Assembly (NCBI GenBank): GCA_000432595.1
Contig: HF996867.1
Coordinates: forward strand, 72,522 to 136,521
Direction of reading: 5' to 3'
Length of the DNA: 64,000 nt
Source of the DNA: Clostridium sp. CAG:710
GTDB taxonomy: Bacteria > Bacillota_I > Bacilli_A > RF39 > UBA660
In this document: positions 8,420 to 64,000 of the stretch, in pieces
Position numbering within the stretch: position 1 is the stretch's first letter
Layout: every line of letters starts with the position of its first letter
Made by a program: the position numbers and the translations under genes
The notes under the pieces: model-generated
The model's database searches: none
Told to the model about the DNA's origin: nothing
The model's input: only the letters and a program-made list of their open reading frames with translations

Positions 8420-8470
8420 TAAAAATATTATTTGAAATATGCTATTATTCAACAATTAGGAAAGGAATAA

Positions 8471-10592: not shown

Positions 10593-10678
10593 AAAAAATG
10601 TCCTCCTTCCTAGAAAGAGAACATTATCTTTATATTTGGTAGAACAAGCCTTCAAGCCTGACTACGGACAAAATAAAA

Positions 10679-12271: not shown

Positions 12272-12285
12272 AGGATAAATGATTA

Positions 12286-12873
12286 ATGAAGTCGTTAAAT
12301 TATACAAAAGCAGTTGTAATTGTTCATGGCAAGTCTGAAAAACAAATTTGTCAATATATAAAAAATAAACTTAGATTAAAAATGGAAATATATAGTGATA
12401 AAAATGGTGAAAAAGCAATACAAATAACTAGTTTAAAAAATACACTTAATAATAAGATTTTTAAATCATTTAAGAATTTTATTAAAACATATGAAGATAT
12501 TAAATTAACTAATGACGAAAAAAATATAGACGATGAATTTAAAATATTCATTATTATGGATACTGATGATTGCACTGAAAAACAAAAAAAAGATTTTATT
12601 AATAAGGAAATATTTAAGGAACATTGGGCATATAAATATATTGTGCCTATATATAACATTCCAGAACTTGAATCAGTTTTAGAAATGGCAAAAATTCCGT
12701 TTACAAAAACAGGAGATAAAAGAAAAAAAGAATATATTAAATTATTTCCAACTGATCCAAGATATGAGAAAACTGATGAAATTCAGATTAAAGAATTACT
12801 AAATACTTTAAAAAAACAAAATAATACTAATTTAAATGAGTTTTTAGATTTTTGTCTAAAATCATCTAATTAA
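12286..12873 (+). CDS. RloB-like (Toprim-like) protein, partner of the ATPase (AbiLii-like)
   Basis: VVIVHGKSEKQ, IIMDTDD and IYNIPELESVL parallel the RloB pattern (CEGEKTE ... DRD ... NPCFE). It starts 14 nt after the ATPase stop. Confidence 0.6.
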   Translation: MKSLNYTKAVVIVHGKSEKQICQYIKNKLRLKMEIYSDKNGEKAIQITSLKNTLNNKIFKSFKNFIKTYEDIKLTNDEKNIDDEFKIFIIMDTDDCTEKQKKDFINKEIFKEHWAYKYIVPIYNIPELESVLEMAKIPFTKTGDKRKKEYIKLFPTDPRYEKTDEIQIKELLNTLKKQNNTNLNEFLDFCLKSSN

Positions 12874-13174
12874 TATACTTACAATACTTGATACTTTTAC
12901 CTCAATAATGACATTAATATTGCCTATTTGGATTTCAATAATTTTATTGTTAATAGTTGTTATAATTAAGTTAATGAATCAAATGGAGGAAAATATTATA
13001 AAAAATAATAGTGGTGTAAAAAACTGCGGTGTATGTAGGCAACCAAATTATTTATTATTGATGGTGTATTAAGTTTGTATAGATGCGCAGTTTGAGGTGC
13101 AAATCCTCAGCCTACACCTAATATTTGTTAAATAATAAAATATATGATATAATTTTAGTAGGAGGTAGATATTT

Positions 13175-13753
13175 ATGGATAATAAGTCGTCAGGAAGAGT
13201 AATGTTAGAAAGAGCAATAGAATCTGGAAAAGGAACTTTAAGATTATTTAGTGCATTTATTGAAGAAACTGTTTTAAAAGGGAAATCAATTAGTAAAATA
13301 GCAAATAGTACATATTTAGTTGCATTAAGTGAGTTAGCAAAGTCATATGCAAGTTTTGATTCTACAAGTGCTATAAATCAATTAGATAATTTCTTTGCTT
13401 TAGTTACAACTGTTTCAAGAGTTCAAAGCGGTATGCTTATGGAAGGAATAATTGATAAAGAATATAATTATACATATGGTCAAACTATTATAGAAAATTC
13501 AAAACCAATGAATAATTATCCTGGTGCAGTAGAAGATCATAATCAACAACTTTTAAGATTAAACCAACAACATGAAATAGATTTAGCATCATGTAAAAAG
13601 CAAATATATCCTGAATCATTGTTGAAATCAAAACGTGAGGCACCATTTGTTGCTAAAGATGGAGCAGAATATCCAACCATATTAGATTATGTAGCATATG
13701 TAACTAAATTACAAGAAGAGATGGAAAAGACATCTTCTGGTCCAAAAAAATAG
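13175..13753 (+). CDS. Hypothetical protein
   Basis: RBS GGAGG 8 nt upstream; 192 aa; no motif recognised. Convergent with the relaxase gene. Confidence 0.5.
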   Translation: MDNKSSGRVMLERAIESGKGTLRLFSAFIEETVLKGKSISKIANSTYLVALSELAKSYASFDSTSAINQLDNFFALVTTVSRVQSGMLMEGIIDKEYNYTYGQTIIENSKPMNNYPGAVEDHNQQLLRLNQQHEIDLASCKKQIYPESLLKSKREAPFVAKDGAEYPTILDYVAYVTKLQEEMEKTSSGPKK

Positions 13754-13770
13754 AAAAAGACAAAACTAGG

Positions 13771-15075
13771 TCATAAACTCCTAGAATTGTCTTTTTCTTT
13801 TTGTATGTCTTTATCAAAATTATTAATATTATCTTGCATAGATTTTGCTCTTTCTTTTATATCTTTACAATATTTGTCATACTTACGAAGTTTTTTAATT
13901 TTAGGTTGAATATCATTTATTTCAGCAAGTATTTTAGATTTATCTTCTTCATTTTTAACTTTATGATATTTTTTCCAAAGGCTTTCTCTTTTATCCATAA
14001 AAATTTTATATTCCTCATAATTGATTTTAGAAAAATGATTTAAGTCTTCTTCTGTTTCAATGTTATTCTTTTTCATAAATACTATTTGATTTGAATATTC
14101 ATCTAATTTTGTAATTTCTTTTCTAATTGAGTATGGTAGATATTGTTTAGGATGCTTCTTTGGAAATACGCCTAATAAATAACAATAGTATAAGTATAAG
14201 CCATAAATACCTTTATGCGATTTATTAGTCTTTAAGTATTCTTCAAAAATAGACTTTTGAGGTATAGGCTTAAATACAATTTGTCTTGATAAATATAATC
14301 TTTTGCTAATACCATCTTTAGAATATTCTTTACCAAATGCTTTTTCTATTCTAACCTTATCCTCATTATCTTTATAAATAGTTATAGTGTCATTTTTAGA
14401 GTATATTTTGTATCCTAACTCTCTCATTCTTTGAACAACTTGTTTAAGTGTTACTGAATAGCTAATAACATTATCTAAATCTTCTTTTAATATTCTATAA
14501 TAGTCATCACTTAATACTTTATTCTTGTAGGTGTTTTTGTAGCCTATATCTTCATCTAAAGTTGATAATCCATATTCAACACATAATGAGTCTGATATAT
14601 GTCTTAACTTAGCTAGATTAGTCCTATTGTTGTTATACTTTTTACCAGTTTTAAATGAAACAGAATTCACTATGAAATGATTATGAATATGATTAGTGTT
14701 TTGATGTGTTGCTACAACCACTTCAAAGTCCTTAAACATTTCTTCTGCAAACTTTACTCCAATCTCATGAGCAATATCAGAAGTAACTTCTCCTTCTTTA
14801 AAAGATTGATAACTATGAAACGCTAATATCCCATTTGTTTTTCCATATTCTTCTTTTGTAAAAAGCATATCTTCATAAGGATTTCTTTCAGAGCAGTTTA
14901 TTGAACTAACATAACATACTTTTTCGTTTTTATAATTGTTTTCTGTATTCTCAATTTCAAGATAACTATATAAGTTTTTTCCATAATCTTTATTGATGGT
15001 TTTTTCGGGATTAATGATATAATTTATTGACTGTTTTAAATTATTTTTAATACTCCAAATAGAAGTAGTCGCCAT
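13771..15075 (-). CDS. mob: MobA/VirD2-type relaxase (mobilisation nuclease)
   Basis: N-terminal MATTSIWSIKNNLKQSINYI and the histidine triad HQNTNHIHNHFIVN. Confidence 0.85.
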   Translation of the reverse strand: MATTSIWSIKNNLKQSINYIINPEKTINKDYGKNLYSYLEIENTENNYKNEKVCYVSSINCSERNPYEDMLFTKEEYGKTNGILAFHSYQSFKEGEVTSDIAHEIGVKFAEEMFKDFEVVVATHQNTNHIHNHFIVNSVSFKTGKKYNNNRTNLAKLRHISDSLCVEYGLSTLDEDIGYKNTYKNKVLSDDYYRILKEDLDNVISYSVTLKQVVQRMRELGYKIYSKNDTITIYKDNEDKVRIEKAFGKEYSKDGISKRLYLSRQIVFKPIPQKSIFEEYLKTNKSHKGIYGLYLYYCYLLGVFPKKHPKQYLPYSIRKEITKLDEYSNQIVFMKKNNIETEEDLNHFSKINYEEYKIFMDKRESLWKKYHKVKNEEDKSKILAEINDIQPKIKKLRKYDKYCKDIKERAKSMQDNINNFDKDIQKEKDNSRSL

Positions 15076-15102
15076 AATTAAGGTTTAGCCTTTCTATATA
15101 GT

Positions 15103-15129
15103 GGATTTTTGGGGTGGGAGTAAAAATCC
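15103..15129. promoter_or_regulatory. Candidate oriT hairpin upstream of the relaxase gene
   Basis: GGATTTTT (15103-15110) pairs with AAAAATCC (15122-15129) around the G-rich loop GGGGTGGGAGT. The core GTGGGAGTAAAA recurs in the 134-bp repeat. Confidence 0.3.
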
Positions 15130-15150
15130 GTTGCTTGCTTATAGAAAGAA

Positions 15151-15504
15151 TCAATCATAGATTAACTCTTTTAAAATAATTTCTTCAGTCATATTTCTAT
15201 AATTATTCATCAATTTAACCCATTCAATTTGATTATTATCTTTACTTTTTTCAGATAGTTTGTCGTCATTTTCAATATAGTTACTCATTAAAATATTGTA
15301 TCTTTTAGAGCATTCAATACTGACCGAAAGAAGATGATTTGTTAATTCATTTTTCATCAGTAATGACACATATAATCCTTTTTTATGATTTTTAATATAA
15401 TCTAATCTTAAATATCCATACTTATTAAGTTGTTTATAATTCTGTTTTTTAATTGTTAAATTTGGCAATAAATAGTCACCAATTTTTGTATATTCAATAT
15501 TCAT
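15151..15504 (-). CDS. tnpV: TnpV-family transposon protein
   Basis: GDYLLPNL..., LSEKSKDNNQIEWVKLMNNYRNMTEEIILKELIY. Lies directly downstream of the recombinase gene, as in Tn4451. Confidence 0.85.
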   Translation of the reverse strand: MNIEYTKIGDYLLPNLTIKKQNYKQLNKYGYLRLDYIKNHKKGLYVSLLMKNELTNHLLSVSIECSKRYNILMSNYIENDDKLSEKSKDNNQIEWVKLMNNYRNMTEEIILKELIYD

Positions 15505-15522
15505 AATTTTATTATTTCCTTT

Positions 15523-17364
<1,842 letters not shown>

Positions 17365-17377
17365 TTAGGGTAGTGAA

Positions 17378-17413
17378 AGGCACCAAAAAAGGTGTCACAT
17401 AACAAGGACACCT
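17378..17413. promoter_or_regulatory. Operator-like G(G/A)CACC half-sites upstream of tnpX
   Basis: AGGCACC (17378-17384), AGGTGTC (17390-17396) and GACACCT (17407-17413). The last two form a 7-bp inverted repeat just 5' of the tnpX RBS. Confidence 0.35.
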
Positions 17414-17484
17414 CTAGATTTTATTGATTATTTGTACGACAAAAACAACCAATATTATGGGAGTATCTAAACTCTCAAATCAAT

Positions 17485-17757
17485 TTAATGCCTTGCTATG
17501 TATTCTGATAATTCAGATAATGGAACTTTATTTTGTAAGTTTCCTAAATAAAAATATTTTTGTTCATTAAAGAACAAGTATAACTGGTTATTTATTATAA
17601 CCTTATGAGGTTCAACATACGCTAGATTAGTATGTTCAACAATTCGTAAGCAACCTTCGTAGATTTTATATTTCTGCTTACTAAATTTGCAAGACCAATC
17701 GATTTTGGTTTTGAGTTCATCACTCATATTGATTTTCTTCTTAATTATTTTAATCAT
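17485..17757 (-). CDS. Conserved small ORF at the element right end
   Basis: 90 aa with RBS AAAGGTG. Homologous to 10326-10592 and to the frameshifted 59547-59883. Confidence 0.45.
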   Translation of the reverse strand: MIKIIKKKINMSDELKTKIDWSCKFSKQKYKIYEGCLRIVEHTNLAYVEPHKVIINNQLYLFFNEQKYFYLGNLQNKVPLSELSEYIARH

Positions 17758-17789
17758 ATCACATCACACCTTTCTTTGCAATAACGCAC

Positions 17790-17814
17790 AAAAAAATCAA
17801 CTATTTCTAGTTGA
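17790..17814 (-). terminator. Rho-independent terminator downstream of tRNA-Gly
   Basis: TCAACTA-TTTC-TAGTTGA (17797-17814) with a T-run on the minus strand (17790-17796). A near copy lies at 59882-59906. Confidence 0.6.
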
Positions 17815-17855
17815 CTTAATCATTAACGTCACATTGGTGCGACGATTTTATCTTA

Positions 17856-17929
17856 TGGAGCGGACGATGGGAATCGGACCCACGTAGTTAGCTTGGAAGG
17901 CTAAGGTTCTACCATTAAACTACGTCCGC
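17856..17929 (-). tRNA. tRNA-Gly (anticodon UCC) with an unusual T-loop
   Basis: Hand-folded cloverleaf: acceptor GCGGACG/CGTCCGC, D-loop with GG, anticodon loop CTTCCAA, T-arm GTGGG-TCCGATT-CCCAT, encoded CCA. Position 55 is C rather than T. Confidence 0.85.
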
Positions 17930-47853: not shown

Positions 47854-48373
47854 AGTTCACCTCAAATTTATATATATTATACCACTTTTTTAATAAGTAT
47901 AGAATTATATAAATTATTTTATAAATATACTTTAAAATGACATGACAAGCATGATAAAATTAAAAAAATATGTAATTACGAAAAAAGAAAAGAAATATAT
48001 GATTTATATTAGTATTTTGCGTGTGAGAGACAAATATTTTTGCAAAGAAAAAAGTGAAAAATCATATTCCTGACAAATGATATTATTCTGTAAGAATATA
48101 AGGCTTGCAATAGTTATAGGGTGGCAGTAAACATTTATAAAAAAGTATTATATATAATCGTAAGATATATTATTTAGAATAATTCTTTTTAAACTATTTA
48201 ACAAAAAAAATATAAGTTATGGTATAATTATACATAGAAATAGCAAACTGATTATTAATTTTACACAATGGAGGCACAGAAAATATATAAAGCAATTGTT
48301 ATAGAATATTTTAAAAAGGCAGGCACCATGGCAAAAAAATAGAAGAAAAATCTAATTTAATAAGGGGAAGATT

Positions 48374-52158: not shown

Positions 52159-52578
52159 ATGAAAAAATATAATGTAATAGTGGTTTTTGAAAAAGACTTA
52201 AATAGAACTTTAATGTGTAAAAGGACGAAAGAACCTTACAAAGGAATGTTTAATTTAGTTGGTGGAAAAATTGATAAAGAAAATGATGGATTAAATGAAG
52301 CGTATAGAGAGTTGCGGGAAGAAACAAATATTAACTGTGATGATATTTCCTTGATTCATTTTATGAATATTGAATATGTTACTATGGGTAAATTAATTGA
52401 AGTATATTATGGTATATTGAATAAAGATGTATGCCTAGTTGAAGAAGTTAATAAACTTGAATGGGTTGATATAAACGATAACTTTTTTGATATGAATAAA
52501 TATGCTGGAGAAGGTAATATAGGACACATCATTGAGGAGATAAAAATCGAGTTGAATAATAAAAACATTAATTTATAA
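52159..52578 (+). CDS. NUDIX hydrolase
   Basis: Nudix box GGKIDKENDGLNEAYRELREETNI. Confidence 0.75.
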   Translation: MKKYNVIVVFEKDLNRTLMCKRTKEPYKGMFNLVGGKIDKENDGLNEAYRELREETNINCDDISLIHFMNIEYVTMGKLIEVYYGILNKDVCLVEEVNKLEWVDINDNFFDMNKYAGEGNIGHIIEEIKIELNNKNINL

Positions 52579-52707
52579 CTTTTGATTTTGTTTCATATTT
52601 AATTTTAGCAGGACAGGAGAATAAGCACGTTCAATGCGAAAATCCTTATTTTAAAAGTAAAAAGCATTTTTGCACTTGAGTTAATGAATATAATAATATA
52701 AAAAAAC

Positions 52708-52755
52708 CTCACACACTAGTATTTAAGTGTACGAGTATTAATTAAAATGGAGTGA
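52708..52755. repeat. Element-end module: hairpin plus AAAATGGAGTGA motif
   Basis: A-run (52701-52706), imperfect hairpin CTCACACACT/AGTGTACGAG (52708-52735), then AAAATGGAGTGA (52744-52755). Same architecture as 10679-10724. Confidence 0.45.
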
Positions 52756-52926
52756 TAGATAAGATAATTTGAAACCATCACTATATAACTAATTTCTATA
52801 AACATATGACTATATTTTATATGTTTTCAAAACAATTTAATAAAATTGATAAAAATAATGTTATAATTAATGCGTAAGGATAAATAATCTGAATTTATTT
52901 TAGACTATTTGGAAGCAGGTGAATAA

Positions 52927-54558
52927 ATGGAAGTAGTAGATTTTAATAAAGTATTATCAAAATCCCTCGATGTAGTTGATGTTGGAATAAACAAGGGTTA
53001 TTTTGATGAGAATAAAAAAGAAGAACTAAACAATAAGTTAGTTACTATATTTAATAATGGCATAGTTTATGATTTACCTGGTACATCAGTATATGGAATG
53101 TATTCTTCTAGTGAAAAAAAATTGTATTTTAATGCTAAAGTTTTTAAAACTGAAGAAGAAGCATTAGTTTATATATTACATGAGATTAAACATGGATTAG
53201 ATCATTATGATGAATCGATTGGTTTTGAATATGAAGATAAAGGTGTTGGCATGAATGAAGGTGCTACTCAAAGGTTTGCGACTGATTTAGCAGAAGAAAT
53301 GTTGCAGACTGAATTTCCTAGAAATATTCAATCTTCATTAGGAATACAATTTAATACATATTTAGACGAATATCAGATTGAAGATAAATTGAATGAATTG
53401 TTTTGTATAGCAACAGGAATAAGTATAAACGAATTTATTAAAATGCAAAATGACCCACAAAAAGAAGAATTTAAAAGATTAATTGATAAATTCAATCAAC
53501 ATGCTAGTTATGAAGTATTTAGAGAACTGCTAGATCAAATATATATGATTCAAGAAGAAACATGGCTTGATGAAAATCGCAATATGTTAGATAAAGAAAA
53601 AGAACCAACTGCTGAGCAAACAAAAAGAGCAATGAATCTAATAAGTCGTTGTAAAAAATTATTATTGAAATATGCAAAAAGAGCAAATATAACTGCTGTA
53701 GATAAAATTAAGGAGGTATCTTTTATGTCAATAGATGAGTATGGTCACATTATTAAAGATAGTTATGATGAACCAACTATACACACAAATTCAGAAGAAA
53801 ATGATATAATGTCTGAAGAAAATATAGTTATGCAAGCAGATTATATCAATTATCAGCAAAACATTTTAAATCAAATTGGAAGTAATGCTTTTAATAATGA
53901 ATGTGCTGTTGTTTTCGTTACCGAATTTAAATATGATAACTGTGAAAAAAATGTCTTTCTAAGAAAAGGAAACGACTATCAAAAAATTATAATTCCAATG
54001 AAGAATGATAAAACAATGGACATTGCTAATATTAGTGTTCAAAAAGTTGATGATATAAATGAGATAAAACTTTCAATTGAAGATTGTGAAACAGAATTTG
54101 GCGTTATTGCAAACGCTCCAGAATATGCAAGAGTTTTAAGTATGTCAGGTGATGATGGCAAAGCCCAAAGTATTTTAAATAAATGGAATTATTTTTTAAG
54201 TAGACAAAATGAATTAGATCAAATTAGACAAAGGGTTGAAGAACAGGATATAACATTTAGGAATAACATGGAAAGATTAAGAAGTTCATTAGGAGATAAT
54301 GGGGAAACAACACCTCAGCAATCTTATTTTGATACCTTATTTAATAAAACCATTAAATATGGAAATATTGTAGTAAATGAAGATGGAATTAATATTGTAA
54401 ATCCAGATGGTTCAATAAAATTTGCTACAGCTGAAGAAGAAGAACAATATATATCACAAATAAGAAGAGCTGTAGAGAATGGTGAAATATTATTAAATAG
54501 AGCTCAATTAGGAGTATTAGATTTATATACAAATGGTGATACTCATAAAAAAATGTAG
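52927..54558 (+). CDS. HExxH zincin-like protein with a long uncharacterised C-terminal region
   Basis: LHEIKHGLDH with a downstream MNEGATQ as a possible third ligand; 543 aa. Confidence 0.45.
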   Translation: MEVVDFNKVLSKSLDVVDVGINKGYFDENKKEELNNKLVTIFNNGIVYDLPGTSVYGMYSSSEKKLYFNAKVFKTEEEALVYILHEIKHGLDHYDESIGFEYEDKGVGMNEGATQRFATDLAEEMLQTEFPRNIQSSLGIQFNTYLDEYQIEDKLNELFCIATGISINEFIKMQNDPQKEEFKRLIDKFNQHASYEVFRELLDQIYMIQEETWLDENRNMLDKEKEPTAEQTKRAMNLISRCKKLLLKYAKRANITAVDKIKEVSFMSIDEYGHIIKDSYDEPTIHTNSEENDIMSEENIVMQADYINYQQNILNQIGSNAFNNECAVVFVTEFKYDNCEKNVFLRKGNDYQKIIIPMKNDKTMDIANISVQKVDDINEIKLSIEDCETEFGVIANAPEYARVLSMSGDDGKAQSILNKWNYFLSRQNELDQIRQRVEEQDITFRNNMERLRSSLGDNGETTPQQSYFDTLFNKTIKYGNIVVNEDGINIVNPDGSIKFATAEEEEQYISQIRRAVENGEILLNRAQLGVLDLYTNGDTHKKM

Positions 54559-54880
54559 TAAATACTCAATTAAAGTTCATATCACTTATGTTTGCACAAA
54601 CTCTCAAAACAGATATAACTATTATCCTTATTCTAAATATAAATATGATGCTTCTAAATCACAAGAAAAAGTTAATATATTTATGTAATTATAAAAATAT
54701 TGTTTTATAAAGAAAAAATCGAACTAAATAGTTGGACAATTTTTATAAATGTAGCGATACCAAAGGTTATTTGAAACTCTTAGTAATAAAAGCTGATAAA
54801 CGACTAATTCCTAAAACAATAATACATATTTTTTTAGATATTAAATAGATTTAAAGAAAATTGAGTAAATAAAAGGTATA

Positions 54881-55530
54881 ATGTATTTAGAAATTCATTC
54901 AGGGAATGATAATATGCTTAAAGAGTTAAAAATAGAATTAACTAATAAATGTTCTAGAATAATTAAAGAAGCAAAACTAATGGGTGCTGAAACTATAGTT
55001 TTTACTGGTGGAGAGACTTTAATGTATGATAGACTTCCTGGACTCGTAGAATTGACTTCAAAATTAGGAATGAAATCAACTATTTATATTTTTGCATATA
55101 GAACCGATGAAACTTTAAATAAATACAAACAATTAATTGATTTAGGGTTAAATAAAATAGTTTATTCACTTGCTGATTAACTATCTGATGAAGAAGATAT
55201 TTCAATTTATGATAAGGCTGAATTCTTTGATAAAGTATCTGAAAACAATTATGCAAGATTATGATTTCATTATACTGTTTCAAAAGATTCTTTTACTAGA
55301 TTAGAACAAGTAGTAAATGGACCTACTGATATGGATTTATCAAAAGGAAAATTATTAGAAATTAAAAAACTTTATTTAAACTCAAATGATAAAGATAGAA
55401 TTAGATTAGGTATTAGTGAAAATATATAATCCAGAGTATTTTAGCAATAATAGAAAATTTAATACTGATGATTCTTGTTCTTCTTGTGAACAAACTATAT
55501 ATATAAAAGTGGTTGTATTGGACAAAATAT
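54881..55530 (+). pseudogene. Decayed radical SAM gene
   Basis: LKIELTNKCS (the CxxxCxxC cluster is missing) and ETIVFTGGETLMYDRL. The reading frame breaks at about 55180 and continues in other frames; a Cys-rich remnant CSSCEQ lies at about 55480. Confidence 0.45.
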
Positions 55531-55618
55531 AATTGCTAATTATATTGAAAATAAGAATGAAGTTTTAACGTTAAAAAGGTGTATTAATTCAAGCAATCAA
55601 AGTGTATGAGGTAGATAT

Positions 55619-56554
55619 ATGAAGAAAAGACAAGAAGTATATGATTTATATTGGTATTTTGCTTGTGAAAGGCAAAATATATTTTGGAAAAAAATAAATG
55701 GAGAATCTGCTCCATGGACTGAAGATAAAATTTTACAAGAATATAAGTTTTGTAATAGTTATAGAGTCAATGACAGAGTTAGCCAATACTTATTAAAGAA
55801 TGTTATTTATAATGGTAAAAGATATACTGATGAAGATATGTTATTTAGAATATTAATATTTAAACTATTTAATAAAGAATCTACTTGGGAATTATTATTA
55901 AATAGTTTTGATGATATTACTTTAAAAACATTTAATATTAAAGATTATTCAATAGTATTGGAAAATGCTATATCTAGTGGTATTAAAATATATAATGATG
56001 CCTATATAAGTTGTGCTAATAAAGCATTTGGATATGATAGAAAACACGATAATCATTTAGCATTACTTAATAAAATGTTTAATGAAGATAGAATACAAGA
56101 TAAAATAGTAAAGTGCAAAAATATGGAAGAAGCATTTAATATAATTAAAAGCTATCCATTAATTGGAAACTTCATGGCCTATCAATTAGTAACTGATATA
56201 AATTATAGTGAAGTGGTAGACTGGAAAGAAGATGAATTTACTATTGCTGGACCTGGATCACTTCGTGGAATAAAAAAATGTTTTATTGATAAAGGCAAAA
56301 TGAGTAATGAAGATATAATTAGATATATGTATGAACATCAAGATGAAGAATTTAAAAGACTTAATTTAGATTTTAAAAGAATTTACAATAGACCATTGCA
56401 ACTTATAGATTGTCAAAATATATTTTGTGAATTAGATAAATATTGTAGACAAGCATTACCGGATTTAAAATCGAATAGAACTAAAATAAAAAAGCACTAC
56501 ATACCGAAGAAAGAAAAAATAGAATATGTTTATCCAAAAAAGTGGAAGTTTTAA
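55619..56554 (+). CDS. Putative DNA base hypermodification protein (alpha-glutamyl/putrescinyl thymine pyrophosphorylase-like)
   Basis: N-terminal YWYFACERQNIFWKK...APWTEDKILQEYKFCNSYRVNDRVSQYL matches my memory of the aGPT-Pplase family signature (ER..I...PWT.D.IL..Y+F.N.YR..DR). Confidence 0.5.
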   Translation: MKKRQEVYDLYWYFACERQNIFWKKINGESAPWTEDKILQEYKFCNSYRVNDRVSQYLLKNVIYNGKRYTDEDMLFRILIFKLFNKESTWELLLNSFDDITLKTFNIKDYSIVLENAISSGIKIYNDAYISCANKAFGYDRKHDNHLALLNKMFNEDRIQDKIVKCKNMEEAFNIIKSYPLIGNFMAYQLVTDINYSEVVDWKEDEFTIAGPGSLRGIKKCFIDKGKMSNEDIIRYMYEHQDEEFKRLNLDFKRIYNRPLQLIDCQNIFCELDKYCRQALPDLKSNRTKIKKHYIPKKEKIEYVYPKKWKF

Positions 56555-57100
56555 GGCTGGTAAGCTAGTAATTTATGATAATAGCGGATTTTAATGGATT
56601 TTTAGAGTTTAAAGAAGAAACTTATCCTTTTTCGCTTTCAAAAAACAAAATTACAATACACCCATACTCACTAGATAAATGAAATAGATTACTTGAAGAA
56701 TGATTTCATCGTACTTCCAATAAAAAGAATAAATGGTTAGATAAAATAATTATTGAGGGTATAACCGATACAGAAAGGGTGTAAAATTTTTTGTTACGAC
56801 AGTCCCACGTATTATAATGGATATTATACTTTTATAGTTGATTATATGTATATATATGATATAAATCACGAAACAAATGATACGTATGATATTAAAGACA
56901 TAAGATTTAAAGGACCAGAAATAAATTATTTTTATAATGTATTTGATTACGTCAAAACTCGAAAAGTTCGAGCAGACTCGTCAATGGAACCTTAAAGGTT
57001 GAAGTCGGACAACCTTTATTTTTTATATAATAGGTAGTAATAAACTACTAACTGATGTAAGTATACCATGAAAATACGAATATAGTACAAAAATATAAAT

Positions 57101-57124
57101 ACAGTGACATTTACAGTGACATTT
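57101..57124 (+). repeat. Perfect tandem 2 x 12 bp (ACAGTGACATTT) upstream of the Fic gene
   Basis: 57101-57112 and 57113-57124 are identical. TATACT lies at 57129-57134 and RBS GAGGAG at 57146-57151. Confidence 0.7.
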
Positions 57125-57159
57125 GTGGTATACTTTTATTAGTACGAGGAGTGATATAG

Positions 57160-58128
57160 GTGAAATTATTTGATGAAATAAAACCAGTGTTTTTTATTGA
57201 CAATAAAATGAATAATCTATTAAATGATATAAATGTTAAACTTAAAAATATAAATGTTAATGATAAACAAAAAAGAAAATATATGATTTCAAAATCTAAA
57301 ATAAGGTCAATTCATTCTTCACTTGCAATTGAAGCTAATTCATTATCTTTATTTGATGTAGAAAGTATATCAGAAAATAAACTAATATTAGGTAAAAAAG
57401 ATGAAGTACAAGAAGTAAAAAATGCAATTGAAGCATATAATCATATAAATGAATATAATTATAAAAGTGAAAATGATTTATTAAAGTTACATAGGTTAAT
57501 GATGAAATACTTTGATGAAGATAATGGTAATTATAGAAATCATGGAGAAGGAGTAAAAAGAAAAGATGAAATAATATATATGGCACCTGAATCAATTTTG
57601 GTTCCATCATTAATGAAAAGTTTATTTGAATATATAAGTAGTAGTGATTTAAATATTATTATTTTATCTGCAATTTTTCATTATTATTTTGTTTTTATTC
57701 ATCCTTTTTCAGATGGAAACGGAAGATGTGCTAGATTTTGGGTAACATTAATGCTAATAAATTATGATAAAAATTTTGAATTTATACCGTTAGAAGAAGA
57801 GATATACTTAAATCAGGAAAACTACTACTTAGCTATAGCAGAATGTCATAATAATGGAAATGCAAATGTATTTATAAAGTTTATTTTACAGACAATTAAT
57901 TCATCATTAGATAAATTGATAAAAAATAGTAATTTTGTTTGTAATGATATTCAAAATAAAATTATAGAACTAATAGCAAATAATAATAGAATTACGCAAA
58001 ATGAAATAGCTAATATAACTAATGTTAATGTAAGAACCATTAAAAGAAATTTTAAAATATTAATAGATAATTTAATAATTGAAAGAATTGGTTCTGACAA
58101 AGCGGGATATTGGCAAATACTAAAATAA
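57160..58128 (+). CDS. Fic-family protein with C-terminal winged-helix domain
   Basis: Fic motif HPFSDGNGRCARFW; C-terminal ELIANNNRITQNEIANITNVNVRTIKRNF is HTH-like; GTG start. Confidence 0.85.
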   Translation: MKLFDEIKPVFFIDNKMNNLLNDINVKLKNINVNDKQKRKYMISKSKIRSIHSSLAIEANSLSLFDVESISENKLILGKKDEVQEVKNAIEAYNHINEYNYKSENDLLKLHRLMMKYFDEDNGNYRNHGEGVKRKDEIIYMAPESILVPSLMKSLFEYISSSDLNIIILSAIFHYYFVFIHPFSDGNGRCARFWVTLMLINYDKNFEFIPLEEEIYLNQENYYLAIAECHNNGNANVFIKFILQTINSSLDKLIKNSNFVCNDIQNKIIELIANNNRITQNEIANITNVNVRTIKRNFKILIDNLIIERIGSDKAGYWQILK

Positions 58129-58457
58129 TTATTAAGCAGGATAAAGAAATTGATAACACCACTATATTTAAAGTCTTATAAACAAAGAATTTATAGTGCT
58201 ATCATTTCTTATTTTGCACTTGCAAAATTGAATTAAAAATATGTAAGAACTCTACCATACTTTTTATTTATTCTTTTTGATTAAAGGTATTATGGAACTA
58301 TAATTTATTTCCAACAGTTGGAATGTGTTTAAAAATATTGGATGACTCTTGGATGTTTTAGGTTAGTGATAAAATTGGCAAAAATGATGGTATAATTATA
58401 TATAGAAGTGACAGATAAATAGTAATTTAATAATTTAAAAAATTTCATTAAAAGATA

Positions 58458-58488
58458 TTGACTCTCCCCTTAGAGTAGGTTGTATAAA
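58458..58488 (+). promoter_or_regulatory. MerR-type promoter with 19-nt spacer and internal dyad
   Basis: TTGACT (58458-58463), a 19-nt spacer containing ACTCT-N6-AGAGT, then TATAAA (58483-58488). Confidence 0.55.
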
Positions 58489-58507
58489 TAATTTGAGGAG
58501 GCAAGAT

Positions 58508-59305
58508 ATGTATAAAATAGGAGATTTTTCTAAAATGTCTAAAACCACCATAAAGGCATTAAGATACTATGAAAAAGAAGGATTATTAAAACCTGTTTTT
58601 ATAGACCAAAATACGAGTTATAGGTATTATGAAAGTAGTCAGTTAGTTGATATTTCAAAGATAATATCCTTAAGGCAAATAGGCTTATCAATTAAAGACA
58701 TTAAAAAAGTTTTAGATGGACAAGATATGTCGTTAATTCTTAATAAAAGAAAAAATGAAATTGAGAAAAATATTTCTAATTTTAATATTGAGCTTTCTAA
58801 AATAAATTATTTATTGGAGGAAAACAATATGAAAAATGAGATTTTTATCAAAGACATTCCAAGTTACATTATTTATTATCGTGATGGAATGATAGAGGAT
58901 TTTAGTAAAATTACAGAATTTGTTTTACAAGCAGGAACAGAATGTGCAAAAGCAAATCCAAACTTAAAGTGCATAAACCCAGATTATTGTTATATCAGTT
59001 ATTTAGATGGAGAATACAAAGAAAAAGATATCAAGATTAGATATGCACAAGCAGTTGAAAAATTAGGAAACGAAACTGATAAAGTTAAATTTATGAAATC
59101 AAATCCTATTACAGCAGTATGTATTTATCACAAAGGAGCTTATAATAATTTAAGAGATTCTTATAATATTATTTTAAAATACATTGAAGATAATGGATAT
59201 GAGATAATAGATAATGCGAGAGAATGTTATATTGATGGATGTTGGAATAAAGAAAATGAAGAAGATTATTTAACAGAGATTCAATTTCCTGTTAAGAAAA
59301 GATAA
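58508..59305 (+). CDS. MerR-family regulator with GyrI-like effector-binding domain
   Basis: MYKIGDFSKMSKTTIKALRYYEKEGLL (MerR HTH), a coiled-coil linker and a C-terminal domain of about 150 aa. The ATG at 58508 follows GAGGAGG. Confidence 0.85.
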   Translation: MYKIGDFSKMSKTTIKALRYYEKEGLLKPVFIDQNTSYRYYESSQLVDISKIISLRQIGLSIKDIKKVLDGQDMSLILNKRKNEIEKNISNFNIELSKINYLLEENNMKNEIFIKDIPSYIIYYRDGMIEDFSKITEFVLQAGTECAKANPNLKCINPDYCYISYLDGEYKEKDIKIRYAQAVEKLGNETDKVKFMKSNPITAVCIYHKGAYNNLRDSYNIILKYIEDNGYEIIDNARECYIDGCWNKENEEDYLTEIQFPVKKR

Positions 59306-59546
59306 ATACAAATTACAATTTATTAGTTAGATTAGTTTGAAATATAACTAGTCTTTTTATTTTGAAAGAAAAATTTATTTGATGTCTAGTGTAGATGATT
59401 TTGACCATCTAGGGTAGATGAAAATTTCCATCCAAGATGGACAAAAATGTCTAACATAATATAATAAGTTAATATAAAGAATTAATATAACAAGAATATA
59501 AATAATAATTTAAATTAGTATAAATATTTATATTAAAAAACAAGTA

Positions 59547-59883
59547 TTAAGTTGGTACTTTACTTGTTTTAAAAATATTTTTATATAGCTGTGTTCTATC
59601 TGGATTTCTTATATTTGATAAATTAATAGTGATTATTCCGAGTTCTAATTTGTTACTTTTAAACTTATCATTATCTTGTATAGGTATTATTCTTAATAAC
59701 AATGATATGTGGCATAACATAAGCAACATTAGTACCTGTTACATTTTTAATTGAGCCATTATTTATAATTGGAGTAGTATTTGTAAATCTTCCAATTATT
59801 TCAATTTTTCTTTTTAATTTATCATTTATTTTTAATTCTTTTGTTTCTATATTTAACATAAAAAGGGCTCTTTTACATAACAA
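59547..59883 (-). pseudogene. Frameshifted copy of the element-end small ORF
   Basis: Two overlapping frames (59671-59883 and 59547-59729). GTNVAYVMPHIIVIKNN aligns with the intact copies. Confidence 0.45.
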
Positions 59884-59959
59884 AAAAACTAACTATTTCT
59901 AGTTAGCATTTATTGCTCCCAGAAGTTAATTTCCGAGCTTCCTATCAATTTGGAGCGAA
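59882..59959. repeat. Element-end module: terminator-like hairpin plus CAATTTGGAGCGAA motif
   Basis: AAAAAAACTAACTATTTCTAGTTAG (59882-59906) is a near copy of 17790-17814. The motif lies at 59946-59959. Confidence 0.6.
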
Positions 59960-60103
59960 TAAACAACAAGTTACGAACCAAGTTCCCTTTCTAAAAATAT
60001 TATATATGTATTGTTATTAAATTCCAATAGGCATATGGAAAAAAATACGTTTATATAGTATAATTTTTATAGTTTAAAATTAGTAAAAGTTAGGAAGTTA
60101 TAT

Positions 60104-61531
60104 ATGAAAATAGGAATAGATATAGACAATGTAATATCAAATTTTAACGATACTTTATTAAATGAATATTTGCTACATGATAAAAAAATAAGAAATTCGG
60201 GTGTTATAAATAAAAATGCTGATTATATTAGAAAAGGAATGTTTGATTGGAATGAAGATGAAGAAACCAATTTTTATAAAAATAATATAGAAAGAATAGC
60301 AAAAAAATTAGGTGTTATTGAAGGAGCTAAAGAATATATAGATAAGCTTCATGATGATGGTCATGTTATTTGTATTATCACAGGAAGAAATAATGGAGAA
60401 TATACAGAACCATATAATATGACAAAAAAGTGGCTTGATGAAAATAATATTTATTATGATAACTTGATTTTAACAGATGCCTATGATAAACACGCTAAAA
60501 CTAAGCAATGTTTAGAGCATAATATTGATATTATGATTGATGACTCTGTTCGGATATGTAATGATTGTATTGAAAATGGAATAACAACAGTTTTAATGGA
60601 TACACCTTATAACAAATCTTCTAATATCCAAAGAGTTAAAAGTTGGGAAGAATTTTATAGATATGTCTCAAATTATAAAAAAGATAAAATTAATATAATA
60701 TTAGATACTGATACTTATAATGAATGTGATGATCAATTTGCATTATCATATTTAATAAAATCGAAAGACTTATTTAATATTGAAGCAATAACAATTGCAC
60801 CATATTCTCATACAAAAAGAGATGTAAAAGTAAGGGATAGCCAAGAGTTAAGTTATAATGAAATTTTAAAGATATGTAATTGGTTAAACTTTGATACAGA
60901 TAATAAGGTGTTTAAAGGTTCGGTGGATTACATTCAAAACGGTTATGATGAAAAAAATGTTGCTGTAAATAAAATTATAGAAATAGCTTTAAAAAATAAT
61001 AAAACTTATATATTAGGGATTGGCGCTATTACTAATATTGCTTTAGCAATAAAAAAAGAACCAAAAATAGTAAACAAAATAGAAATTATTTGGTTAGGTG
61101 GCAATGAACTTGGCTACAAAGATAACCTTGAATATAATTTTAGACAAGATGTTGAAGCTGTAAAAATAGTATTTGAATCAAAAGTGAAGTTAACTATACT
61201 TCCTTGTAAAAATGTTGTTTCAGAATTAAGAATTGATATTAATACTCTAAAAAAACATTTAGAGAACAAATCAGACTTATGTAATTATTTAATTGAAAGA
61301 TTTTATAATGATGGATATCATGGTGTGCAAGAATCAAGAGTAATATGGGATATATCAGTAATAGCTTATATGATAAATAAAAATTGGTTTGAAACGGAAC
61401 AAATAAGTTGTCCTAATATAAGAAAGGATACTTCTTATGAAGTAACGTACAATAGACATAATATTATTTTTGTTACTAAATTAGATAGAAATAAAATATA
61501 TGATGATTTATTTAAAAAGATAGGAGAATGA
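60104..61531 (+). CDS. Fusion of a HAD/NT5C-type 5'(3')-deoxyribonucleotidase domain and a nucleoside hydrolase (IUNH-like) domain
   Basis: N-terminus: IGIDIDNVISNF (DxDxV), ITGRN, MIDDS. C-terminus: IILDTDTYNECDDQFAL (aspartate cluster of inosine-uridine nucleoside hydrolases). Confidence 0.6.
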   Translation: MKIGIDIDNVISNFNDTLLNEYLLHDKKIRNSGVINKNADYIRKGMFDWNEDEETNFYKNNIERIAKKLGVIEGAKEYIDKLHDDGHVICIITGRNNGEYTEPYNMTKKWLDENNIYYDNLILTDAYDKHAKTKQCLEHNIDIMIDDSVRICNDCIENGITTVLMDTPYNKSSNIQRVKSWEEFYRYVSNYKKDKINIILDTDTYNECDDQFALSYLIKSKDLFNIEAITIAPYSHTKRDVKVRDSQELSYNEILKICNWLNFDTDNKVFKGSVDYIQNGYDEKNVAVNKIIEIALKNNKTYILGIGAITNIALAIKKEPKIVNKIEIIWLGGNELGYKDNLEYNFRQDVEAVKIVFESKVKLTILPCKNVVSELRIDINTLKKHLENKSDLCNYLIERFYNDGYHGVQESRVIWDISVIAYMINKNWFETEQISCPNIRKDTSYEVTYNRHNIIFVTKLDRNKIYDDLFKKIGE

Positions 61532-62142
61532 AGATGAAATTAACAAGTAAAGAAGCAAGAACATTATTAGAAACAGAAAGAAAAAACACAACAGATGATA
61601 GATGGATAGAACACTGTATATCTGTAGGTGATAGTGCTTTTAGAATTGCTAAAGCATTATGTGAAAAAGGAATAAATGTAGATATAGACAAAGCAACTAC
61701 TCTAGGATATTTACATGATATTGGTAAGTATAATGGTGAGTCACATGGACATGTTATGAGGGGATATGAATACTTAAAAAACAAAGGATATGATGATGAA
61801 TATGCAAATATATGCTTAACTCATTCATACTTAAATAATGATATAGTGTGTACTGCCGGAGGAGTTCCAAATCCAAATGATAATCCTTTTTTAACAAATT
61901 TTATAAAAAATCATGAATATACTATAGAGGAAAAGATAATAAATTTATGTGATTTGATGTGTCCACAAGGAAATAAAGTATTTACAATTGATAAAAGGTT
62001 AATCGATATAATGATTAGAAGAGGTGTGTATTCTAACACCCAGTATCATATTAAAGAAACATATAAATTAAAAGAATATTTTGATAATTTATTAGGATAT
62101 AATTTGTATGACTTGTTTCCAGAAGTAAAAGAAAATTTATAA
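61528..62142 (+). CDS. HD/HDIG-domain phosphohydrolase
   Basis: HCISVGDSAFRIA...GYLHDIGK...HGHVMRG...LTHS. The start overlaps the previous stop (ATGA). Confidence 0.75.
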   Translation: MKMKLTSKEARTLLETERKNTTDDRWIEHCISVGDSAFRIAKALCEKGINVDIDKATTLGYLHDIGKYNGESHGHVMRGYEYLKNKGYDDEYANICLTHSYLNNDIVCTAGGVPNPNDNPFLTNFIKNHEYTIEEKIINLCDLMCPQGNKVFTIDKRLIDIMIRRGVYSNTQYHIKETYKLKEYFDNLLGYNLYDLFPEVKENL

Positions 62143-62148
62143 AATGAA

Positions 62149-62281
62149 TTGGGAATTTCCCATGGACGAATTTATACGAGAGTACAAATTCAGTGCTGGC
62201 TAGACATAGATTTAATTCCCATATTCAAAAAAATATGCAAAAAGAGGATTAAATTATTTTGATAATTTTTTCCTCTTTTTT
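62149..62281 (+). repeat. 134-bp repeat, copy 2
   Basis: See copy 1 (1896-2029). Here no tnpV or recombinase follows. Confidence 0.75.
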
Positions 62282-62304
62282 GAAAATCATTTATATAAAA
62301 TAAA

Positions 62305-62350
62305 AACTCACGAACAATTAAGTCCGTAAGTTGATTTCAAATGGAGCGAA
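62305..62350. repeat. Element-end module: hairpin plus CAAATGGAGCGAA motif
   Basis: ACTCACGAAC...GTCCGTAAGT hairpin, then CAAATGGAGCGAA (62338-62350). Near copy of 10675-10724. Confidence 0.65.
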
Positions 62351-62557
62351 TGTCGTAGGTATCTACAACTTTTCACTTCTTAACGATTTGATACATAAAA
62401 TTTTAATCTATAATAAAATTGTACCACAAATTATAAAAAATAGTTTAAAAAACCGATAATATTGCAATAATTGCTTTATATTCAAATGAAAATATGATAG
62501 AATTAAGATAGTTGAGTATCTAAAATGATACTCTTTTCTTTTGGAAAGAAGGTACAT

Positions 62558-63979
62558 ATGAAGAAAAAGCGATTTAGCGAATATAATAACTATAAATATG
62601 ACTTATCTAAAGATACATGGTTTAATCCTGTTGTAGAATGGGATTCTAAACTCTTTATTGATCCTTTATTACTAAAAAGAACTAATATTAAAGAGCTAAA
62701 AAATTGTTATCAAGAGTTAATTAAATTCTTTAAAAATGCTTGTGTTGCATTAAAAACAAAATCAATACCAAAAACATTAGTAGAAAATATGTTAAATTTT
62801 AGAGAGGTTGAAGAAGCACAACTAGGATACTCTTATAATAGCAATAAAGGTAGTGGCTTTTCTGGTTTAACTGCTTTAAAATTTTTTGAAAACTTTTCTA
62901 AATATATAGATTTAAAAATATTTAATTACGATGAACTGGAAGAAATTACTCTATTTGAAGAAAATGTTGATCTTGATAGGATAACTGATATGATATTGTC
63001 TATAACAAAACGCTATTTTATAGCATATAGTTGTAGTATTGCAGAAAAAGAGGGATTTCCTTTAGATAAATTTAATATATTAACTCATTTTAATTTTGAC
63101 GAAATGAGTTGGATATCTGAGATAGTTAAATTACCTTACATAATTAACAATGAGAATAAAAAAGTCCCTGTATTATTGGTTCCACATTCTATCTTAGTTG
63201 GAGAATTACATTATAATTCTGAAAACTTTATTACTTGGTTATGGAATAATGAAACAGACTATGTAAAAGATACATTTGAATATAATATAAAAAAAGAATT
63301 AGAGTCCAACAAAAAGGAAATTATAGAAAAAATTATAGAAAATAACGATACTGACCTTTTTAAAAGGTTTGGTAATGAACCTGTTGAACCATATGATTTA
63401 CAAAAAGATAAAGATATAATTAACAAAGTTTATGATTTTGTTAAAGATATAAAAATATCAAATAAAGATAGCGAAATTTCTGTGCTAGAAATGGCTGATG
63501 ATTTAATAAATGATATCGAACATGCTGTACAAGATGAAAGAGGATGGTCCTTACTATTAAGTGATACAAGTATTAAATTTAGAGCCGAACCAATTATATC
63601 AAAGTTTTCCCACCTAATTATAGAAAGAAAATCTGAGAGTTTGGGATTTAATTTAGATATTTCCCCTGAAACAAATAAAGGTAGAGGTCCTGTTGATTTT
63701 AAACTATCTAGAGGTAGAGAAAAAGTGTTAATTGAAATAAAAACTTCTACACATCCAGATTTAATGACTTGTATAGAAGATCATAAACAATTGCATCAAT
63801 ATATGAAACAAGAAAGTTGCAAAGATGCAATTTTATTAGTTTTTTATAATAAAGAATCTGATTTAGAAAAAATAAATGAACTGCATACTAAAGTAGCAGA
63901 GTCTAATAAAAGAAATAACCATAATATGATGATAAGGACAATAAATTGCATACCTGGTCCGTCAGCTTCTAATTTATAA
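62558..63979 (+). CDS. Hypothetical protein with C-terminal PD-(D/E)xK nuclease-like motif
   Basis: GRGPVDFKLSRGREKVLIEIKTS gives the D ... E-x-K arrangement. The N-terminal 350 aa have no recognised motif. The ATG at 62558 follows GAAGG. Confidence 0.4.
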   Translation: MKKKRFSEYNNYKYDLSKDTWFNPVVEWDSKLFIDPLLLKRTNIKELKNCYQELIKFFKNACVALKTKSIPKTLVENMLNFREVEEAQLGYSYNSNKGSGFSGLTALKFFENFSKYIDLKIFNYDELEEITLFEENVDLDRITDMILSITKRYFIAYSCSIAEKEGFPLDKFNILTHFNFDEMSWISEIVKLPYIINNENKKVPVLLVPHSILVGELHYNSENFITWLWNNETDYVKDTFEYNIKKELESNKKEIIEKIIENNDTDLFKRFGNEPVEPYDLQKDKDIINKVYDFVKDIKISNKDSEISVLEMADDLINDIEHAVQDERGWSLLLSDTSIKFRAEPIISKFSHLIIERKSESLGFNLDISPETNKGRGPVDFKLSRGREKVLIEIKTSTHPDLMTCIEDHKQLHQYMKQESCKDAILLVFYNKESDLEKINELHTKVAESNKRNNHNMMIRTINCIPGPSASNL

Positions 63980-64000
63980 ATATGAAGATATGATTCTAAT

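Follow-up and report, generated by a model that had tools for sequence, protein, structure and literature searches.

The window analysed here, a stretch of 64,000 nucleotides from Clostridium sp. CAG:710 (contig HF996867.1), contains at positions 59951-62351 a compact unit in which two genes are enclosed by a short direct repeat. The original prediction, made from the letters of the window, had described this unit as a 2.4-kb mini-element that retained both ends of a serine-recombinase element and had lost the recombinase. Comparison with related loci bears this out: a serine-recombinase element gave rise by deletion to this discrete, non-autonomous unit keeping both ends, with recombinase-bearing counterparts (contigs L110 and L048) and with a contig of otherwise the same arrangement from which it is absent (L023). 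We furthermore consider it probable that the unit, derived from a parent of about 5.1 kb inserting at tRNA-Gly genes, is a non-autonomous integrative element that is excised and re-integrated in trans.

Architecture of the Two-Gene Unit

The components that had been predicted for the unit, namely a 9-bp direct repeat, two co-oriented overlapping genes as its only interior genes, a 134-bp repeat, a remnant of the tnpV stop region and a right-end hairpin about 85% identical to 10675-10712, were all recovered, some of them with refined borders. In a whole-window search TGGAGCGAA occurs in exactly two exact copies, at 59951-59959 and 62342-62350, and the direct repeat is 10 bp rather than 9 bp long (TGGAGCGAAT, 59951-59960 and 62342-62351), as is evident from L023, whose empty site has a single TGGAGCGAAT left. 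The 7-mer TGGAGCG is found five times in the window compared to 0.41 expected copies, a number that none of 100 shuffles reaches, and four of the five copies lie on the plus strand at element or tRNA junctions (10717, 17856, 59951, and 62342).

The left copy of TGGAGCGAAT on the plus strand forms the crossover core of attL, for which the empty site of L023 holds the single copy. It is followed on the same strand by the left end or P' arm (59961-60103), which was recognized with an end model and a promoter scan. A conserved left-end block of approximately 70 nt (59951-60018 including the core) contains CAAGTTACGAAC, and the scan placed a promoter-like site at 60036-60064. The nhmmer model of the left end detected 23 sites with varied upstream flanks, to which a scan of metagenomes with the left-end pattern added 30 further loci. 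The two cargo genes overlap by 4 nt and are the only open reading frames (ORFs) inside the unit; neither a recombinase nor a relaxase nor a TnpV domain is present among them according to the ORF list and Pfam.

The cargo is followed by a conserved backbone module on the plus strand (62143-62295), the predicted 134-bp repeat, which matches 1890-2044 with 86% identity over 114 nt in blastn including an identical terminator core of 43 nt. Inside the module a bidirectional terminator hairpin (about 62239-62280) is placed between the cargo and the former recombination module. In an alignment of 13 copies the mean column identity is 82%; the fold has a z-score of -3.4. A structured RNA was considered for this repeat and rejected, as the consensus fold of 11 copies supports the terminator hairpin only, with no convincing covariation elsewhere. 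Within the module, the stretches 62165-62205 and 1912-1953 (GAATTT...GCTGGCTAG) show codon-like substitutions over the 13 copies, i.e., changes at third positions and a conserved stop, TAG or TAA. This substitution pattern suggests either what is left of a C-terminal coding region or a tiny ORF; weighing against a small ORF are the inconsistent start codon and a frame-shifting indel upstream.

At the end of the module TCATTTATA (62287-62295, minus strand) is the reverse complement of tyrosine, lysine and stop, the last two codons and the stop of tnpV, as comparison with the stop of the 118-aa TnpV ORF at 2038-2040 indicates. The sole surviving copy of TTATATAAAA (62291-62300, minus strand) marks the internal deletion junction in the alignment of the unit with L110. 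The right-end hairpin (62305-62332, minus strand), part of the P arm, is a rho-independent terminator in the terminator scan, with an 11-bp stem followed by a T run, and folds with -15.6 kcal/mol (z = -5.3). The right end (62291-62350) is 87.5% identical over 56 nt to 10670-10724, and its hairpin is homologous to the one adjoining tRNA-Gly(GCC) in contig L022. The right copy of TGGAGCGAAT (62342-62351, plus strand) constitutes the core of attR. The right-end model gave 37 matches, and both termini of the unit are matched by the end models with E values of about 1e-18 to 1e-19. A megablast search of 59700-62700 against plasmid and phage collections retrieved no match, and Rfam, applied with gathering scores to the whole window and with E<=1 to 59800-62500, returned two tRNAs only and no described structured element. 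Near-matches to the core and arm motifs on the minus strand at 47621 and 47703 lie inside an ORF and were judged to be due to chance.

Cargo Genes and Their Relatives

Cargo gene 1 (60104-61531, plus strand) encodes a 475-aa fusion of a 5'(3')-deoxyribonucleotidase (NT5C/HAD, PF06941) with a nucleoside hydrolase (IU_nuc_hydro, PF01156), for which the NCBIfam RihC/UriH matches stay below the cut-off. Cargo gene 2 (61528-62142, plus strand) encodes a 204-aa HD/HDIG phosphohydrolase (PF01966, TIGR00277). Many relatives carry between these two genes a third one for a 2H phosphoesterase of about 180 aa (LigT / 2'-5' RNA ligase superfamily), e.g., at 9419-9952 of L052, 9431-9982 of L031, and 9397-9960 of L036; the window copy is devoid of it. 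Judged by this combination of a deoxynucleotidase-nucleoside hydrolase fusion with an HD phosphohydrolase and, in many relatives, a 2H phosphoesterase, the cargo most likely breaks nucleotides down step by step, or salvages them, as far as the base. A defence role through nucleotide depletion is possible by analogy, because sister cassettes hold defence-type genes (AbiJ, PDC-S07, PDC-M36A-like, and Abi_alpha); PADLOC yielded no match for the cargo of the unit itself.

A scan of species-representative genomes with the 475-aa protein revealed 279 relatives, from which 79 loci were fetched, and the hosts are uncultured gut bacteria represented by metagenome-assembled genomes of the type "Bacilli / Tenericutes / Clostridium sp. 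CAG". Around the gene pair of the closer relatives this left end, backbone repeat and hairpin are found again, and in relatives with <=70% identity searches at the DNA level rarely detected element features or ends. The gene pair was probably captured from a chromosomal operon.

An Exact Empty Site

The genes neighbouring the unit were looked up by exact protein, which led to many metagenome contigs with the same arrangement and to one without the unit, L023 (ENA ERZ28810215, NODE_436). This contig is lacking exactly 2,391 bp as one piece and has one copy of TGGAGCGAAT left, and its flanks share 100.000% identity with the window, the left one along 7,794 bp (52167-59960) and the right one along 1,659 bp (62342-64000). 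Since there are zero mismatches over 9.4 kb of flanks, the gain or loss of the unit was very recent. The direct repeat was also considered as a target duplication generated by a transposon or transposase. This was rejected, as TGGAGCGAA already exists in the empty site, embedded in a conserved core corresponding to the tRNA-Gly 3' end.

The Recombinase-Bearing Parent and a Series of Deletions

The counterpart in L110 measures 5,079 bp from core to core and has the same ends and the same two cargo genes (93.6% nucleotide identity). In addition, it encodes an intact large serine recombinase of 596 aa (Resolvase, Recombinase and Zn ribbon domains) and a 121-aa TnpV protein (PF14198). The unit aligns to L110 with 93.6% identity over positions 1-2350 and with 95% over positions 2340-2399, and the extra 2,691 bp of L110 lie between two copies of TTATATAAAA. 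As both alignments overlap on TTATATAAAA, the unit arose by deletion between these 10-bp direct repeats. The deletion took the recombinase, the small ORF, and tnpV except for its last two codons. The claim that exactly the segment comprising tnpV, recombinase and small ORF is missing is confirmed with L110 as the reference and not confirmed with the copy within the window, which is itself decayed. L048 likewise runs from the left end through cargo, backbone repeat, tnpV, recombinase, small ORF, and hairpin to the core; in it the recombinase gene is split into 502 + 87 aa compared to the single 596-aa ORF of L110.

Further deletion states are found among the related loci. In L107, L108, L114, L116, and L121 only the recombinase is missing. 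L029 underwent an independent deletion that spared 94 nt at the 3' end of tnpV together with 115 nt on the side of the small ORF, and its cassette sits directly between a native terminator and tRNA-Gly(TCC). Because the breakpoints of L029 differ and other deletion states exist, the recombination module was lost at least twice. Looking for the same unit at other loci, proposed beforehand as a check, led to L113 and L117, which share the deletion junction of the window, align end to end with 92-93% identity, and have different left and right neighbours. One recombinase-less form has persisted, has diverged by approximately 7%, and occurs in several contexts.

tRNA-Gly Genes as Target and the Tandem Array

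The gene for tRNA-Gly(TCC) in the window (17856-17929, minus strand) has CGCTCCA as its last 7 nt. Its 3' end consequently reads TGGAGCG on the plus strand, from which it follows that the core complements the 7 nt with which tRNA-Gly ends. Contigs identical to the window place a tRNA-Gly(GCC) gene just past the right window end, preceded by a similar hairpin and TCAAATGGAGCG; in L024 it is located at 9956-10029, about 513 bp beyond the window end, and tRNA-Cys follows. TGGAGCGAA is the crossover core copied from the tRNA-Gly 3' end, and its left copy is at the same time the tip of a decayed neighbour.

Occupation of this target can be read from the filled contig L021 and the empty contig L022, which differ by a recombinase element inserted at tRNA-Gly(GCC) and flanked by a 7-bp TGGAGCG repeat. 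The element spans 4.56 kb (9963-14522 of L021) and encodes Mob_Pre, a 622-aa serine recombinase and a 91-aa small ORF. A larger element resides at the same tRNA-Gly(GCC) site in L020/L001 from 9962 onwards, with genes for an acyltransferase, a glyoxalase, PadR, an EF-G/Tet(M)-like GTPase (640 aa), and a 609-aa recombinase; at the left junction of this element only TGGAGC is shared. All resolved junctions lie at TGGAGC(G), i.e., at the tRNA-Gly 3' end or at its copy at an element boundary, and the elements of the family occupy the very 3' end of tRNA-Gly genes. The crossover can be narrowed only to GGAGC, which is the sole stretch common to all junctions compared and which contains GA. Because the hairpin terminates on the strand of the tRNA (minus), the right end of an element would supply the terminal nucleotides of the tRNA together with a replacement terminator, and integration would leave the tRNA intact and newly terminated.

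On its left side the unit is adjoined by the decayed right end of an older element (59671-59950, minus strand), consisting of a homologue of the small ORF that is truncated (59680-59859), a terminator hairpin (59879-59908), and about 42 nt from hairpin to core. In tblastn the ORF fragment shares 37% identity over 60 aa with the 90-aa ORF that belongs to element A described below, and hairpin and spacer are near-identical to the right end of the L021 element with Mob_Pre and the 622-aa recombinase. The right neighbour is a recombinase-less unit, D (62352-64000, plus strand, running on to tRNA-Gly(GCC)), with a left-end type of its own, AATGTCGTAGGTATCTACAAC, that recurs in L052 and L088. Its gene at 62525-63979 (DUF8370/8371) is similar to the PADLOC candidate defence gene PDC-M36A, and a 39-aa small-ORF remnant, a hairpin, and the core follow, abutting tRNA-Gly(GCC). 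The left flank being a decayed element end and the right flank another left-end type, the local order is a tandem array of decayed element, core, two-gene unit, core, unit D, and the core with tRNA-Gly(GCC). Arrays of repeat-bounded units were also observed in L028, L031, L044, L052, and L127, and several contig arrays end at tRNA-Gly. In L029 (153-3123) three tRNA-Gly(TCC) genes are arranged in a row, with the right end of an element of the 609-aa type before the first and a recombinase-less nucleotidase cassette between the first and the second.

Further features lie to the left of the unit. The decayed region contains a SoFic gene (57160-58128). The segments 54881-56554 and 47962-48210 are a decayed copy of a cassette with radical-SAM/SPASM and 5-hydroxymethyldeoxyuridine (5-hmdU)-DNA-kinase-like genes that is intact in, e.g., L118, L111, L135, and L109; about 250 nt of the start region of the kinase-like gene (55604-55880) are repeated at 47962-48210 with 76-88% identity. 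A strain-specific segment of about 3.3 kb (52186-55486; NUDIX protein, 543-aa protein, and a radical-SAM fragment) is shared by the window with L001 and L004 and absent from L002 and L003. It was examined as a core-bounded cassette and rejected: TGGAGCG is missing at its borders, which implies a different mechanism.

Other Serine-Recombinase Elements in the Window

The in-window relative with which the original prediction had compared the unit, B (1890-10723, minus strand), was taken there for an intact element and turned out to be decayed. It comprises the backbone repeat (1890-2044), tnpV (2038-2394), a C-terminal recombinase piece (2422-2679), a recombinase pseudogene of the cognate type (2701-4202), an inserted block of about 6 kb with a 594-aa recombinase (8471-10255), a small ORF (10326-10655), a hairpin (10678-10707), and the core (10717-10723). 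The pseudogene is 88% and 66% identical to the cognate type of L110/L048 in two pieces and is interrupted by two in-frame stops, one of them in ARTK*AMEEM, and by a frameshift near 3420, the C-terminal part of about 87 aa being a separate piece. Since the cognate gene of the window is dead, a helper would have to be encoded elsewhere in the genome or be brought in by an incoming element. The block between the pseudogene and the small ORF of B (4424-10255) contains NAD-salvage-type genes; it encodes a PnuC-type nicotinamide mononucleotide transporter, an isochorismatase-family protein, an APH-like kinase and a 269-aa protein, as well as the third, intact 594-aa serine recombinase on the opposite strand, and is probably a nested element. 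The cargo of the decayed element B is of anti-phage type, with AbiJ at 982-1878 (PADLOC 281 bits; Pfam Abi_C) preceded by a PDC-S07-like gene at 531-962.

Element A (10724-17862, minus strand) is a complete integrative mobilizable element (IME) in tRNA-Gly(TCC). It encodes an AAA_21 ATPase of 443 aa, proteins of 195 and 192 aa, a MobA/VirD2 relaxase (13771-15075), TnpV, a 609-aa recombinase (15523-17352), and a 90-aa ORF. Copies related to A are frequent left neighbours of the nucleotidase element in metagenomes.

A Family of Cassettes With the Same Ends

Two profile models, one for about 70 nt of the left end and one for about 60 nt of the right end, served to delimit complete units. The 28 units obtained range from 1.5 to 5.1 kb. 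No recombinase is present in 26 of them, and 18 possess neither recombinase nor TnpV. The ratio of non-autonomous to autonomous units of about 13:1 in the sample gathered is only indicative because of the biased sampling. Cargo with the nucleotidase was found in 11 units and other cargo in 17, and the spectrum includes nucleotide-catabolism, abortive-infection, transporter, peptidase, and DNA-modification genes. Among complete units and neighbouring array units, the other cargo consists of an ABC-2 transporter, Abi_alpha with a metallophosphatase, a methyltransferase with a radical-SAM/HD protein, radical-SAM/SPASM with a 5-hmdU-kinase-like protein, aminopeptidase C, and a MATE-like protein. 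We tentatively raise the possibility, which we rate below an even chance, that uncultured gut Bacilli possess a large and as yet undescribed family of recombinase-less cassettes to which the two-gene unit belongs. Each cassette would have a conserved left end bearing a promoter and a conserved right end made up of backbone repeat, terminator hairpin, and tRNA-Gly core, and the cassettes would be kept in tRNA-Gly arrays and shuffled in trans by a few serine recombinases. If true, such a family would represent the serine-recombinase counterpart of the integron.

Origin and Mobility of the Unit

The observations can be combined into the following course of events. The parent had the order left end, NT5C-nucleoside hydrolase gene, HD gene, backbone repeat, tnpV, gene of the 596-aa recombinase, small ORF, terminator hairpin, and core, and loss of the 2,691 bp between the TTATATAAAA copies turned it into a two-gene unit with both ends. 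Elements of this kind pile up in tandem at the 3' ends of tRNA-Gly genes, and a cognate recombinase supplied in trans would excise and re-integrate the unit with a crossover inside GGAGC. Mobility subsequent to the deletion is supported indirectly by the copies in L113 and L117, which have the same junction in different neighbourhoods, and by the exact empty site in an identical background.

Several findings weigh against this course of events. The junctions of the unit are hybrids with arms of other element types and not canonical attL and attR sites, and the dyad symmetry of the reconstructed joint is weak to modest (16/30, P = 0.027). The cognate recombinase is represented in the window by a pseudogene only. 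The empty site is known from a single metagenome assembly. Moreover, the lineage is prone to spontaneous deletion between 10-bp repeats, as the internal deletion demonstrates, and the loss in L023 could accordingly be non-enzymatic. Finally, the census of complete units is biased, as the loci were gathered through the cargo gene and the left-end pattern.

Owing to the hybrid junctions, the weak symmetry of the joint, and the capacity of 10-bp repeats to delete spontaneously, the main rival is an inert relic, i.e., a unit that no longer moves and whose absence from L023 reflects slippage or microhomology deletion between the 10-bp repeats independent of a recombinase. The loss of the recombination module itself between the 10-bp TTATATAAAA repeats, the non-canonical arms, and the want of an intact cognate recombinase in the window fit such a relic. 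Nevertheless, we regard it as rather unlikely: the end-points of the deletion in L023 fall exactly on the crossover core that is used throughout the family, the same internal junction recurs with different left and right neighbours, and recombinase-less units, outnumbering the others by 26 to 2 in the biased census, have stayed intact and kept their conserved ends in spite of 7-25% divergence, contrary to what one would expect of inert debris.

A different question is which enzyme would move the unit. The original prediction had pointed to the 609-aa recombinase of element A (10724-17862), some 45 kb away, as the helper. No other complete element in the window has a recombinase that is clearly intact, A has the same TGGAGCG core and the same tRNA-Gly target, and elements of the 609-aa type are often the immediate left neighbour of the cargo element. 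Large serine recombinases read half-sites of approximately 20 bp on each side of the core. The arms of A (..GCGACGATTTTATCTTA, core, ATAACTTTACTTATATTCG) are unrelated to those of the unit (..GTCCGTAAGTTGATTTCAAA, core, AATAAACAACAAGTTACGAAC), and the protein is only about 27% identical to the cognate type. For these two reasons the 609-aa enzyme would be an unlikely helper, and the proposal is improbable as it stands.

A reversed direction of events, in which the two-gene cassette is ancestral and the block of tnpV, recombinase, and small ORF is a separate module inserting into cassettes, accords with the 10-bp direct repeat flanking this block in L110 and with the occurrence of the same cassette ends around many cargos without a recombinase. 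It is highly improbable all the same, since the unit keeps the last two codons and the stop of tnpV, since L029 retains tnpV and small-ORF remnants with other breakpoints, and since losses of the recombinase alone exist; these differing remnants identify the forms as nested deletion products and not as empty insertion sites. Ordinary chromosomal genes with a chance 9-bp repeat, a reading that could appeal to the 279 matches of the gene pair in species-representative genomes and to the rarity of element features at the DNA level in the more distant relatives, are refuted by the exact presence/absence polymorphism at the repeat, by ends conserved in dozens of loci, by the recombinase-bearing counterpart, and by the over-represented core.

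Significance and Comparison With Known Systems

The exact empty site and the full series of deletion intermediates document how a small serine-recombinase element decays to a two-gene, seemingly mobilisable cassette, and they present tRNA-Gly genes as loading docks for cassette arrays in poorly studied gut Bacilli with small genomes. If the mobilisation in trans is true, the arrays would offer a tractable model for serine recombinases handling hybrid sites in tandem, a route by which defence and salvage genes spread among uncultured gut bacteria, and possibly new pairs of site-specific recombinases and att sites, with approximately 70 nt conserved on the left and 60 nt on the right.

Two labels that had been attached to the unit call for revision. 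Miniature inverted-repeat transposable elements (MITEs) are likewise short and non-autonomous, with the enzyme encoded elsewhere. However, the parent encodes a serine recombinase and not a DDE transposase, the repeat pre-exists singly in the empty site, and the symmetry of the ends is weak; without a DDE parent, terminal inverted repeats, and a target-site duplication, the term MITE-like does not fit. The second label was Tn4451-type. As in the clostridial Tn4451 and Tn4453 elements (TnpX, TnpV, TnpZ), a large serine recombinase is combined with a TnpV-domain protein (PF14198), GA is contained in the core, and neighbouring relatives also carry a Mob/Pre or MobA relaxase. According to Guedon et al. 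(2017; PMC5704250), Tn4451 has low target specificity and a 2-bp crossover. The elements described here, in contrast, are site-specific for tRNA-Gly with a shared core of 7-10 bp, and the two-gene unit is devoid of both genes: TnpV is present in the parent forms and the in-window relatives, whereas the unit keeps the last two codons only. The recombinases of the relatives have the Resolvase, Recombinase, and Zn_ribbon domains; tblastn against plasmids found no close TnpX relative among the plasmid-borne recombinases, the best matches being <=33% identical and annotated only as "recombinase family protein". The assignment would depend solely on the TnpV domain and a generic large serine recombinase, and on these sequence comparisons membership in the Tn4451 family is not established. 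Full-text literature searches found neither papers that tie Tn4451 to non-autonomous derivatives nor papers on TnpV/serine-recombinase elements at tRNA-Gly. Close analogues, i.e., derivatives without a recombinase that are flanked by att sites and lie in tandem arrays, are already known from other systems.

Gene cassettes of integrons resemble the arrays in being co-oriented small units with a conserved recombination end. They differ in that the arrays have no attC, no IntI tyrosine recombinase (the associated recombinases are of the serine type), and no shared promoter, each unit having a promoter-like left end of its own.

Another analogue is formed by the ssrA-specific islands of Dehalococcoides (McMurdie et al., 2011; PMC3146451). 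They use CcrB-like serine recombinases, are integrated at the 3' end of a structured-RNA gene (tmRNA) with a 3'-end repeat at each boundary, and occur in tandem, and the authors suggested that islands without the integration module are cis-mobilizable. The islands are distinguished by a 20-bp repeat, a six-gene integration module, a much larger size, and another phylum and target gene; the units described here, with 1.5-5.1 kb, have very compact conserved ends. A further likeness exists to the staphylococcal cassette chromosome (SCC). In staphylococci, SCC-like cassettes without ccr genes (pseudo-SCC, the arginine catabolic mobile element ACME, and defence cassettes) lie beside SCCmec and are excised and circularised by the recombinases of the neighbouring cassette (Hossain et al., 2024; PMC11470126). 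Both systems have large serine recombinases, recombinase-less units, short direct repeats, tandem arrangement, and accessory or anti-phage genes. The target in staphylococci is rlmH (orfX) instead of tRNA-Gly, and the recombinases are CcrAB or CcrC; the Ccr models of NCBIfam score 131-157 bits on the recombinases studied here against cut-offs of 900. Moreover, mobilisation in trans has been demonstrated in staphylococci, whereas here it is inferred. The likeness of the arrays to SCC is a resemblance in working and not membership.

The concept also corresponds to cis-mobilizable elements (CIMEs) and the tandem accretion of integrative elements, as defined by Guedon et al. (2017; PMC5704250). 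The history proposed there, i.e., integration, decay, and entry of a new element at the regenerated site, and the placement at a conserved target gene's 3' end, next to further elements both related and unrelated that form a tandem, are both mirrored by the two-gene unit. The unit has no genes for integration or transfer, both att ends are 93-95% identical to those of L110, and it is derived by deletion. In contrast, the cases drawn from it, such as the IME at tRNA-Lys in Streptococcus agalactiae, use tyrosine integrases, and serine-recombinase IMEs are described in the same review as usually integrating inside genes and disrupting them, whereas the target here is the extreme 3' end of a tRNA gene that stays intact. 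The two-gene unit hence belongs to a kind of element that is already known from other bacteria, and it constitutes an extension of CIMEs, SCC composite islands, and ssrA islands rather than a new phenomenon.

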